Source of the DNA: an uncultured Gemmatimonadales bacterium
GTDB taxonomy: Bacteria > Gemmatimonadota > Gemmatimonadetes > Gemmatimonadales > GWC2-71-9
DNA: 64,000 nt
Reading direction: 5' to 3'
NCBI GenBank assembly: GCA_963730185.1
Contig: CAVSQW010000015.1
Coordinates: 128,001 to 192,000, forward strand
Part shown: in pieces, positions 19,435-21,450 of the stretch
Layout of the letters: each line of letters opens with the position of its first letter
Position numbering within the stretch: the first letter of the stretch is position 1
Notes under the pieces: model-generated
Databases searched by the model: none
Told to the model about the DNA's origin: nothing
What the model saw: the letters and a program-made list of their open reading frames with translations, nothing else
Position numbers and translations under genes: made by a program

Positions 19435-20133
19435 TTAGTGCCGACCGACCTTGACCGCCGCCTCCGCGTGTCGGAGGCAGAAGCCGACCCCGCGCACCGT
19501 TTCGACCCGGGGGTCGTTCACGTGCTTGGCGAGCTTGCGGCGGAGGTTACCGACGTGCACGTCGACGACATTGCTCTCGGGGTCGAAGTGCATGTCCCAG
19601 ACCTTCTCGAGGAGCGTCGTCCGCCGCACCACCTCTTCAGGATGGAGCATGAAGTACTCGAAGAGCTGGAACTCCTTCGCCGTCAGGTCCAGCCGCTGGC
19701 CGTTGGCCATGGCCTGGTGCCGCAGCCGGTCGAGCTCGAACGGACCGTAGCGAAGGACCTCCAGCCGGTCGGCGCCGCCGCGGCGGTGGAGCGCTCTGAG
19801 CCGGGCCAGGAGCTCCTCGAATCGGAACGGCTTGGTGAGATAGTCGTCGGCCCCGACGTCGAGCCCCCGTACGATGTCTTCCACCGAGTCCCGTGAGGTC
19901 AGCATCAGGATGGGCGTGTTCCGCCCTTCGCGGCGGAGCTCCGCGGCGACCTGAAACCCGCTCTTCTTGGGAAGGAGGACGTCGAGCAAAATGACGTCGT
20001 ACTCGTAGACGTGGGCCAGCATGGTGGCTTCCTCGCCGTCGGGGGCAACGTCGACGACGTACCCCTCTTCCTTGAGGCCCTGCTCGATGAAGCCCGCGAC
20101 TTTCCGGTCGTCTTCCACCACGAGGATCTTCAT
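19435..20133 (-). CDS. OmpR/PhoB-family response regulator
   Basis: VVEDD, LLD, DDYLTKPF, SNVVDVHVGNLRRKL, ETVRGVGF. Confidence 0.95.
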   Translation of the reverse strand: MKILVVEDDRKVAGFIEQGLKEEGYVVDVAPDGEEATMLAHVYEYDVILLDVLLPKKSGFQVAAELRREGRNTPILMLTSRDSVEDIVRGLDVGADDYLTKPFRFEELLARLRALHRRGGADRLEVLRYGPFELDRLRHQAMANGQRLDLTAKEFQLFEYFMLHPEEVVRRTTLLEKVWDMHFDPESNVVDVHVGNLRRKLAKHVNDPRVETVRGVGFCLRHAEAAVKVGRH

Positions 20134-20166
20134 GTCGTCTTCCTTCCCAAGGGTATCGTGAGGGAG

Positions 20167-20211
20167 AGTTTACTCGGTCCCCTCTAAACCCCGGGTCAAG
20201 GTTTTATGAAG
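20167..20211 (-). promoter_or_regulatory. Regulon promoter of the response regulator (possible autoregulation)
   Basis: Minus strand CTTCA, CTTGA, GTTTA at 11-nt period; TAAACT at +17. Confidence 0.65.
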
Positions 20212-20217
20212 AGTAGC

Positions 20218-21450
20218 TCATGGTCCCGCGGCCGGCAATCTCAGGGCGAACCGGCCGCCATGGCCGGGCTGGGCGACGGCGATCAGGTCGCCGCCCAGGA
20301 CGCGAGCCAACCGGCGGGACAGGGGGAGCCCCACGCCGTAGCCCACCCGGCCGGTCTCGGCCGCGTTCGCGGTGGTGTAGTAGATGTCGAAGATCCGCTC
20401 CACGTCGTCCTCGGCCACCCCGTCGCCCTGGTCGAGCACGGTGATCTCGACCCGACCGTCGACCGCCTCCGCGGTGAGCTCGATCTGGCTTCCGGCGGGT
20501 GTGTGGCGGATGGCATTGGTCAGGACGTTGACCAGGATCTGCTCCACCCGGTGAGCGTCGGTATGGCAGAGCAGATGGACGTCTCGAGGGGGCGTCCCGA
20601 AGGTGACCCGTTTTTCGTCCGCCGAGGGCGTAATTCGGATGATCGCTGTCTGGATCAGCTGGCAGCAGTCGACCACTTTGAGGATCGGCTTCAGGCGGTC
20701 CTCGTCGAGACGGTTCAGGTCGAGGAGGTCGTTCACCAGCGCCACCGCCTGCTCGGCCGCCTCGAGAATCTCGAATGCGCCCCGCGGCACCGTCTCGGGG
20801 TCCTTCCGGCGGACCAGCATCTCCGACCAGCCGTAGACCGCGGCCAGGGCGTTCCGGAGTTCGTGGTTGACCATCGCGAAGAACCGCTCGCGGGAGCGGT
20901 GGAGCTGCTGGACCTCCTCGAGGAGATGCGCGGTCCGCTCGTAGAGGCGGGCGTTTTCCACGGCGGAGGCGATGATCGCGGCGAGGAGCTGGGCCAGGTG
21001 CACGTCTTCGTCGCTGAACTCGGCGGCGTCGACCTTCTCGGTGAGGTAGAGGTCGCCCAGCACGCCCTGGCGCCCGACGATCGGAACGCCGAGGAACGAC
21101 TTCATGGGCGGGTGGTGCTTCGGGAAGCCGACCGACGCCGGGTGCCGCTGGATGTCGGGCAGCCGGACCATCTGGCCTTCCCGGATGACCAGGCCCAACA
21201 CACCGTGCCCGATGGGGAGGGTCCCGATCCGGGCGCGCTCGGCGTCGCCCAGGCCGGAAGTGGTGAAGCTGGCCAGCGTCTCGTTGTCGGGATTGAGCAG
21301 GCCGATGGCGCTGTACCGCGCGCTGAGCACTTCGCGGCCCAGGTCGGCCACCCGCTGGAGCACCCGATCAAGCCGAAGCTCGCCGACGAGCTCCGGAGTG
21401 ATGCGGACGAGCCGCTCGATGCGTTCGTGGGAAGCGCCGCCAGTCGGCAT
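20218..21450 (-). CDS. GAF (DosS/DevS-like) sensor histidine kinase, HisKA-HATPase, no TM
   Basis: [21 protein letters not shown]...[18 protein letters not shown] H-box; [20 protein letters not shown]. Confidence 0.92.
   Translation of the reverse strand: [410 protein letters not shown]

Follow-up and report, generated by a model that had tools for sequence, protein, structure and literature searches.

The 64,000-nucleotide stretch analysed here (the window: contig CAVSQW010000015.1, positions 128,001 to 192,000, of an uncultured Gemmatimonadales bacterium, assembly GCA_963730185.1) encodes a histidine kinase with a DosT-like GAF domain and, 84 bp downstream on the same strand, an OmpR-family response regulator. 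The best explanation, to which a probability of roughly 60% is given, is that the two form a conserved Gemmatimonadales two-component system in which a likely heme-binding GAF kinase senses falling O2 and phosphorylates the adjoining regulator. By analogy with DosT, O2 bound to a ferrous heme on His113, and held there by Tyr135, would keep the kinase off, and in the deoxy, CO or NO state His196 would be autophosphorylated and the phosphate passed to Asp51 of the regulator. The geometry of the predicted sites suggests that the phosphorylated regulator would bind head-to-tail on repeats that cover the −35 region; a TANNNT −10 element follows about 11 nt further on. It would activate its own gene (a positive feedback), an operon of an ATPase and a cbb3 oxidase, and genes for universal stress proteins (USP), Acg, Hsp20, CBS and hibernation proteins, and elsewhere in the genome a cytochrome c–nosZ operon, a NiFe hydrogenase and a pyruvate:ferredoxin oxidoreductase (PFOR). 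Trees suggest that the regulator and its DNA code would have been taken from a CusRS-like pair, the membrane kinase of which was kept in some lineages and lost in that of the window. As judged from sequence, the system is real and conserved, and its sensor residues, DNA site and predicted target genes form a coherent whole.

Pfam assigns to the kinase one GAF domain (residues 26–165), a HisKA domain (PF00512, 187–250) and a HATPase_c domain (298–407), and the same scan found no HisKA_3 core. The HisKA domain starts 22 residues after the only GAF stretch, with no second GAF (GAF-B) detected by Pfam, and AlphaFold2 builds the connection as a single long helix; the whole model runs from GAF over the helix to DHp and CA (mean pLDDT 80.5, pTM 0.53), and a fold search with it returned kinase cores and phytochromes, a ranking of no use for the GAF. 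An earlier note, made by a model from the letters of this DNA, had described a soluble kinase with one DosS-like GAF and a HELRN-type HisKA, and the motifs that it quoted, including the His of HPPM and the Tyr of LYLT, are all found in the open reading frame at 20218–21450 (ARYSAIG at residue 44, HPASVGFP at 103, HHPPM at 112, LYLTEK at 134 and HELRN at 196). Solubility was likewise borne out, as no membrane segment was found in the kinase, its top 19-residue hydropathy being 1.32 versus 2.1–2.5 in membrane kinases. A tblastn search of the genome (assembly 82% complete) returned only one DosS-like GAF, that of the kinase itself.

The top five PDB sequence matches are all mycobacterial GAF-A domains (DosT, 2vzw, E 9.5e-40; DosS, 2w3d, and variants, about 1e-31); they outrank every kinase core, and the next GAF-containing match reaches only E 1.5e-11. 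The likeness to DosS can thus be refined, the GAF being, by these matches, nearer to DosT. Residues were put into correspondence by counting the printed alignment (offset 59) by hand against the numbering in a review (PMC4082495), and the alignment to His149 and Tyr171 of DosS that the earlier note had proposed as a check places His113 and Tyr135 at these positions (Table 1). Among the 120 listed homologues that were aligned (of 4547 matches), His113 is kept in 119, and Tyr135, Gly50 and Phe62 are each kept in all 120; the counterpart of Phe62 in DosS, Phe98, is a pocket residue (PMC12154584). The proximal His, distal Tyr and pocket Phe are near-invariant also across all 61 GAFs in the loci fetched for comparison, and more distant GAFs (L161–L170) are without the heme motifs. 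Seven of the eleven DosT heme-contact residues named in PMC4082495 are identical in a hand count. Because the proximal His, the distal Tyr and pocket residues are kept across homologues, heme binding by the domain is likely. Glycine at the position of DosS Glu87 is the DosT state, and DosT is the better-accepted O2 sensor of the two, though this is disputed (PMC4082495); the reported O2 affinities are 3.3 µM for DosT and 0.46 µM for DosS (PMC10925234).

The regulator consists of a receiver, with the phospho-accepting Asp51, Ser79/Thr78 and Lys101 in place, and a winged-helix Trans_reg_C domain, and its nearest profile is that of the CusR/CzcR/CopR heavy-metal regulators (TIGR01387; 231.6 bits, under the cut-off of 279.2). 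No membrane HAMP–HisKA kinase adjoins it in the window, and the seven other full-length OmpR regulators of the genome each adjoin a kinase-sized gene of their own, in six of which an H-box is recognisable. Distribution was surveyed in 301 genomes of the phylum, among them 125 of the window's family and 70 of the next family; the latter include G156, flagged as unpublished, on which alone no claim depends. The GAF was matched in 115 of the 301 (three weakly), i.e., in 101 of 125 and 5 of 70, respectively, and the NCBI names of the homologues are Gemmatimonadales or Gemmatimonadota. Close regulator orthologues (E < 1e-100, at least 69% identical) were found in 101 of the 125 and in 3 of the 70 genomes. 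Both proteins are present in 99 genomes of the window's family and neither in 22, leaving two with the kinase alone (one at a contig start, the other, L085, with a truncated kinase and a regulator fragment) and two with the regulator alone (both at contig ends). Sixty GAF loci were fetched, spread over genera and with paralogues included. In 50 of them the regulator, 68–90% identical, lies directly downstream of the kinase (once with an internal stop), so that the OmpR-family neighbour recorded by the earlier note is a conserved feature; the ten others comprise a contig end, a broken locus, four second copies with the pair elsewhere in the genome, and four kinases of other families. A predicted complex of the kinase core dimer with the receiver scored 0.38, a control scoring 0.54, and was counted neither way. 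The kinase–regulator distance correlation of 0.73 over the 50 loci was not counted as support, because kinship alone would give it.

A shared promoter element would link the regulator to its predicted targets. Expectation-maximisation on 50 regulator promoters, all from other genomes, yielded TGAAG-N4-CTTCA and, after it at 11-bp steps, TT and TTCA; the motif lies mostly 17–21 nt before the start codon, from which a TAGNNT element separates it, and it scores above 20 bits in 45 of the 50. The palindrome is exact in 28 of 49 regulator promoters and present with at most one mismatch in 42, as compared with 0.04% and 1% of shuffles. In the window, the degenerate palindrome before the regulator continues with TT and TTTA half-sites at 11-bp pitch, with a candidate −10 (TAAACT) at 20167–20172. 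Promoters of the divergent USP gene (n = 23) carry TTCAY-N5-CTTCAY with a third half-site upstream; the window's own site, held out, scored 28.1 under this motif, and a candidate −10 lies 11 nt beyond it. Exact matches to the pattern TTCA-B-N6-TTCA number 11 in the window versus 0.20 expected, and all fall into the part from 21.5 to 50.8 kb; ten are intergenic, and one is at the end of a gene shortly ahead of the next start (gene calls from a codon model built for this work). Across the window's family, exact repeats number 2.74 per Mb in the 101 genomes with the regulator versus 1.18 in the 24 without it (reversed pattern, 0.72 versus 0.80), and the density is higher with the regulator in 9 of 9 genera holding both kinds, kin not being independent. 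Many genome-wide matrix matches are noise in AT-rich contig ends. The TTCA repeats at 11-bp pitch are accordingly put forward as the predicted binding site of the regulator; direct repeats at this pitch are the binding mode reported for PhoP (PMC4832192), and BfmR binds direct repeats head-to-tail (PMC11806355).

The earlier note had expected a DNA code different from that of DosR. The TTCA box is indeed unlike a DosR-type palindrome, but it is not purely a direct repeat, as the autoregulatory site also holds a palindrome. A DosR/OsdR-type palindrome as the box of the island was rejected (2 matches versus 2.6 expected, both inside genes), as was FNR/Anr wiring: no site has fewer than two mismatches, and all 15 two-mismatch matches to the FNR-type pattern (3.75 expected by shuffling) lie inside called genes. 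Some observations on promoters stand beside these. Most relatives (L033–L087) have the −10 candidate of the regulator promoter some 7 nt ahead of the start codon, so that their transcripts would be leaderless; in the window the leader is longer and includes a purine-rich stretch. At 48144–48385 (−), tandem boxes and a −10 candidate face 200 bp in which no gene was called and which a strong hairpin closes; a small RNA or a peptide under box control may be encoded there. The AT-rich contig ends (G000:C7, about 716–758 kb, and C12, about 420–435 kb), in which the high-GC gene model made no calls, are probably foreign islands.

The genes in the window that the boxes precede are listed in Table 1. 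The ccoN–ccoO fusion at 15230–17428 (−) scores over the cut-off of NF011053, several relatives having separate, less identical genes, and the small last gene of the cbb3 cluster (9181–9381) is presumably ccoS. Four tandem USPs are box-bearing or co-transcribed, and a fifth USP is divergent from a box. Actinobacterial DosS homologues, too, have Acg, USP, CBS and Hsp20 genes around them, and S30AE/RafH is under DosR control (PMC3390679). The earlier note had proposed a dormancy gene set similar to that of DosR, which stands as a family-level overlap only: the Acg-family FMN protein alone passes a specific profile (NF047509, 303 bits, cut-off 199), and the USP and CBS proteins are not closest to the mycobacterial ones. 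Moreover, with cbb3, nosZ, hydrogenase and PFOR among its members, the predicted regulon resembles a switch to microoxic respiration no less than a dormancy set. A CHAD-domain gene at 22595–23361 (−) is seemingly split across two reading frames. At loci without cbb3 (L044, L053, L057, L063, L066, L069, L075, L084 and L091), another heme-copper oxidase subunit I, a weak CtaD match, is often near the kinase.

Outside the window, 20 genes stand behind the strongest promoter-like matches, 15 of which are named by Pfam; these include a NiFe hydrogenase small subunit, PFOR, a di-heme peroxidase, a peroxiredoxin, two radical SAM enzymes and a cytochrome c. The cytochrome c gene heads a nosZ operon, and nosZ is present in 67 of the 125 genomes of the window's family. 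On nos promoters an AT-rich palindrome nearby confounded the USP-promoter matrix, and a fixed composite pattern (at most one mismatch, within 1.1 kb upstream of nosZ), chosen post hoc after those matches, took its place. The composite site, with just nine occurrences in the window's genome, one of them upstream of nosZ, was found at 13 of 29 nos loci from regulator-bearing genomes (20 picked across genera and nine already fetched, of the 67) versus 0 of 20 from regulator-lacking genomes (two from the window's family, 18 from others). Divergent from the cytochrome c–nosZ operon lies a small regulator gene (G000:C1:22920–23375), which we take by its motif to be of the Rrf2 type, with the AT-rich palindrome beside the TTCA box; similar small regulator genes flank nos operons in many relatives, which suggests dual control.

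Apparent intermediates bear on the origin of the pair. Downstream of the regulator, 14 of the 60 loci have another kinase; it is a membrane protein with HisKA and often HAMP, and the heavy-metal sensor profile TIGR01386 is its best match, though below cut-off. All 18 fetched next-closest regulators (59–68% identical) are followed by a membrane kinase, and none of them has a GAF kinase within about 3.5 kb. The GAF-kinase-linked regulators form one clade (96) in a quick tree of 76; its deeper branches contain all 14 three-gene loci, interspersed with six two-gene ones, and the window belongs to a nested clade of 32 rows (99) in which the membrane kinase is missing next to the regulator. The recognition helix is common to these and the outgroup regulators, and the exact palindrome is upstream of 7 of the 18 (null 0.06%) with no GAF kinase beside them, i.e., the box follows the regulator lineage. 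On the simplest reading, a regulator with its membrane kinase would have recruited an existing heme-type kinase, and the old kinase would then have been repeatedly lost. Among catalytic cores (quick tree), the GAF kinases form their own clade (96) and the membrane kinases a separate one (99); an origin of the GAF kinase's core by duplication of the membrane kinase's core is therefore unsupported, the identity being 24–30%. The GAF-kinase core clade includes two-GAF forms from three other families, in which (L088, L089, L090) a heme-type kinase neighbours a sigma-54 activator of the NtrC type, which would give the sensor a third kind of output.

That the same gas sensor had been rewired, as the earlier note put it, holds in so far as a heme-type GAF is joined to a HisKA/OmpR output; a direction from DosS does not follow. 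In a quick tree of 130 GAFs (every second actinobacterial locus retained), the Gemmatimonadales GAFs are a clade (96) in a polytomy with, and not within, the actinobacterial ones, and an origin inside the Actinomycetales DosS clade is unsupported. The better-supported rewiring, as the regulator tree suggests, is the capture of the regulator from a pair of the membrane metal-sensor type. An architecture survey proposed by the earlier note covered 150 listed cluster representatives, among which multi-GAF proteins rank first, so that the counts are not frequencies. A GAF with the His motif occurs in 36, and the 35 scanned have HisKA (14), a hybrid core (1), HisKA_3 (5), HWE/HisKA_2 (3), GGDEF (6) or are fragments (6). 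Most of the 80 genome loci that were kept come from Actinomycetota and encode two GAFs with an H-box of the HisKA_3 type; two have a single GAF and HisKA_3, and one proteobacterial protein is GAF-PAS-GGDEF-EAL. The DosT-type GAF is, by these architectures, a portable module; the kinase architecture alone is ordinary domain shuffling, and descent from DosS itself is not shown, the GAF being portable and the tree unresolved. The proteins in which a DosT-type GAF with heme His and Tyr is fused to GGDEF or GGDEF-EAL (L153:1429–5346; P0146, P0168, P0212, P0241, P0266, P0270) are candidate gas-gated c-di-GMP enzymes. In other HisKA kinases (P0122, P0123, P0125, P0126, P0145, P0154) heme-type GAFs stand in tandem, two or three per protein, and every one has the His motif.

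Several points weigh against a low-oxygen activating pair. The sign of regulation, i.e., activation, and this under low O2, is taken by analogy. Four of the eleven DosT heme contacts differ (Tyr98→Thr, Ser111→Thr, Glu114→Ile, Arg116→His), and the pocket differs also in an invariant Leu52 that replaces DosS His89/DosT Arg87; with Gly50 for Glu87, the Tyr–Glu–His network of DosS is therefore absent. In a kinase without GAF-B, the GAF–kinase coupling must differ from that in DosS/DosT. The site before ccoN is weak, the cbb3 link in the window coming mainly from operon structure, and an oxygen link is not evident for some of the genes behind the strongest matches outside the window (a peptidase, an epimerase, a TonB receptor). 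The composite site is missing at 16 of the 29 regulator-bearing nos loci and, as 17 of the 20 regulator-lacking loci are from another family, kinship confounds the comparison. Many other-family genomes without the regulator also carry many exact repeats, so that the short pattern is not specific genome-wide. Finally, the order of the partner exchange was derived from an outgroup root and quick trees with SH-aLRT values alone.

Among the alternatives, the one that survives best, though unlikely, changes the signal or the sign: the kinase might respond mainly to NO, CO, sulfide or heme redox state, or be chiefly an O2-gated phosphatase acting on a regulator phosphorylated by a membrane kinase, where present, or a small donor. 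DosS reportedly responds to H2S. The phosphatase motif ExxN is intact in the kinase, a second, membrane kinase is available in the 14 three-gene loci, and nosZ is a nitrogen-oxide gene; furthermore, DosS and DosT respond to NO and CO (PMC10925234). The glycine shared with DosT and predicted targets that fit low O2 (cbb3, hydrogenase, PFOR, the USP kit) nevertheless argue for O2, and no second-kinase orthologue lies beside the regulator in the window's genome (82% complete). It is quite improbable that the regulator is still of the metal (copper) type, with the GAF kinase a neighbour or minor input and the box marking a regulon for metal homeostasis in the supply of copper enzymes. Both cbb3 and NosZ belong to this class of enzymes, many loci have a P1B ATPase after the regulator, and the best NCBIfam profiles of the regulator and the membrane kinases are TIGR01387 and TIGR01386, but all of these heavy-metal scores lie under their cut-offs, the membrane kinase is missing from 36 of the 50 loci, the GAF kinase is the constant partner, and the box-bearing genes are mostly for USP, CBS, Acg, hibernation and anaerobic metabolism, not metal efflux. 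There is a similarly slim chance that the pair is genuine and its regulon misassigned, the box being read by a co-inherited Crp/Fnr- or LuxR-family factor. The genome has two Crp-type and 13 GerE/LuxR-type domains over cut-off, the excess of FNR-type matches noted above would be in line with it, and the Burkholderia low-oxygen lxa locus has a similar gene kit under an Fnr/Anr-like box (PMC3721108); these FNR-type matches are, however, all two-mismatch ones inside called genes, the DosR/OsdR-type palindrome is at chance, the box before the regulator's own gene (42 of 49 loci) follows the regulator lineage into the outgroups, and the 11-bp tandem geometry suits a winged-helix OmpR dimer. That the GAF keeps fold and motifs yet binds no heme or another ligand, the kinase sensing a non-gas signal, hardly fits the near-invariant His, Tyr and Phe and the more distant GAFs that lack these motifs, even though four heme contacts differ, GAF domains bind many ligands and a literature search found no experimental data beyond Actinomycetota.

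Should the favored explanation of an O2-sensing kinase and its OmpR-type regulator hold, it might extend further: the system could be the master low-oxygen switch of a large Gemmatimonadales family, reached by a partner swap with living intermediates, in which a DosT-type heme kinase took over a CusR-like regulator and the DNA code that came with it, the former membrane kinase disappeared, and the dormancy kit, cbb3 and clade II nosZ acquired TTCA boxes. This joint reading is tentative and falls somewhat short of even odds. Gemmatimonadota, counted as one of the dominant phyla of soil, possess nosZ of clade II (PMC9530729), and a study of the O2 sensitivity of non-denitrifying N2O reducers names only FNR/NNR-type control from other phyla (PMC10100939). 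If true, there would be FNR-independent oxygen control of a major N2O sink, with a concrete sensor, regulator and DNA site for oxygen sensing in such reducers, and the DosT heme GAF, no longer an actinobacterial speciality, would serve as a portable gas sensor of general use with NarL, OmpR, NtrC and c-di-GMP outputs. A predicted natural single-GAF heme kinase also offers a way to ask about the role of GAF-B in DosS/DosT, and the series of regulator with membrane kinase, with both kinases and with the heme kinase only lends itself to the study of two-component partner exchange. As sensor-domain shuffling is common, the nosZ link and the surviving swap intermediates are the more notable parts.

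Table 1. Features of the two-component system and its predicted regulon (positions in the window).
Feature	Position	Strand	Basis or remark
Soluble sensor histidine kinase, GAF + HisKA + HATPase_c, 410 aa	20218–21450	−	Open reading frame, Pfam, PDB match, AlphaFold2
DosT/DosS GAF-A-type domain, aa 26–165, predicted heme-binding	20956–21375	−	Pfam GAF_2; 2vzw, E 9.5e-40
Gly50 (DosT Gly85/DosS Glu87), DosT-like distal pocket	21301–21303	−	PDB alignment counted by hand
His113 (DosT His147/DosS His149), proximal heme ligand position	21112–21114	−	PDB alignment counted by hand
Tyr135 (DosT Tyr169/DosS Tyr171), distal ligand-discriminating position	21046–21048	−	PDB alignment counted by hand
His196, phospho-accepting His of HELRN H-box, ExxN intact	20863–20865	−	Motif search, homologue alignment
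OmpR/PhoB-family response regulator, 232 aa	19435–20133	−	Response_reg + Trans_reg_C (Pfam)
Predicted autoregulatory site, degenerate TGAAG-N4-CTTCA palindrome	20185–20220	−	Promoter motif
Tandem CTTCAY repeats before divergent USP gene	21513–21540	+	Matrix scan; best-scoring box in genome (29.4 bits)
Tandem-USP gene divergent from kinase	21590–22456	+	Start uncertain; longest frame begins at 21539, inside box
P1B heavy-metal-type P-type ATPase directly after regulator	17508–19424	−	TIGR01525 above cut-off
Weaker candidate box near cbb3 cluster	17511–17536		Motif scan
cbb3 cluster: fused ccoN–ccoO, ccoQ, ccoP, ccoG, ccoH, DsbD_2 protein, ccoI	9181–17428	−	Pfam, NCBIfam
Box 23412–23426, then YgaP-like protein, Acg-family FMN protein (23720–24748), MgtC/DUF4010 protein	23412–26015	+	
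Box 26049–26063, then tandem-USP gene	26049–27056	+	
Box 28705–28719, then baeRF10 release-factor-like gene and DUF302 gene	27060–28719	−	
Box 30011–30025, then CBS-pair gene	29491–30025	−	
One-mismatch box 31049–31063, then Hsp20 gene	31049–31579	+	
Boxes 42609–42623 and 44538–44552 before erythromycin-esterase-family, phosphoribosyltransferase and hydrolase genes	42609–45953	+	
One-mismatch boxes 46487–46512, then CBS-pair gene	45983–46512	−	
Boxes 48651–48665, 49664–49678 and 50794–50808 before two tandem-USP genes, DUF5661, and S30AE + cold-shock-domain hibernation-type gene	48651–51863	+	

Set beside known systems, the kinase appears to work like DosT yet outside the DosS/DosT–DosR system of Mycobacterium tuberculosis (DosT, Rv2027c; DosS or DevS, Rv3132c; DosR or DevR), descent from which is not established. 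A literature search (few subscription journals, no supplements) turned up no paper that describes a sensor of the DosS/DosT type in Gemmatimonadota, or one with an OmpR regulator as its partner. Shared with the mycobacterial system are the GAF-A sequence with its proximal His, distal Tyr and DosT-type Gly85, the solubility of the kinase, the neighbours of the USP, Acg, Hsp20, CBS and S30AE families and, in some Gemmatimonadales lineages, two kinases to one regulator. By contrast, the window's kinase has one GAF instead of two and a HisKA core, whereas the actinobacterial homologues L104 and L106 give HisKA_3; the regulator is of the OmpR type, whereas DosR is a NarL-type regulator (PMC13486717, PMC3029386) and the actinobacterial neighbours L128 and L130 are REC + GerE proteins; TTCA repeats at 11-bp pitch take the place of the G+C-rich DosR palindrome, and the predicted targets include cbb3 oxidase, nosZ, hydrogenase and PFOR. 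Streptomyces coelicolor OsdK/OsdR (SCO0203/0204) has a DosS/DosT orthologue outside mycobacteria, set among USP, nitroreductase and pyruvate phosphate dikinase genes, but it keeps a DosR-type regulator and a 16-nt palindrome (PMC5069765), a pattern that is at chance in the window. CusRS, CzcRS and CopRS (TIGR01387/TIGR01386) are closest on the regulator side, in the profile match and in the palindrome of the seven outgroup relatives, and four of the outgroup's membrane HisKA kinases, with related ones, score best to TIGR01386; the window's pair differs in the score under cut-off, the soluble heme-type kinase upstream, the loss of the membrane kinase in its clade, and a predicted regulon that is not metal efflux. 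The nearest functional parallels, none of which joins a DosT-type GAF to an OmpR regulator, are FixL/FixJ, the lxa locus and NmpRSTU of Myxococcus, the last of which is said to be an oxygen switch for a similar kit with an NtrC-like NmpR. In FixL/FixJ, O2 sensing controls high-affinity oxidases, as is predicted here, through a heme PAS domain instead (PMC8534201), and the lxa locus of Burkholderia cenocepacia is an O2-controlled island of USP, Hsp20 and nitroreductase genes, like that of the window, under an Fnr-like palindrome (PMC3721108).

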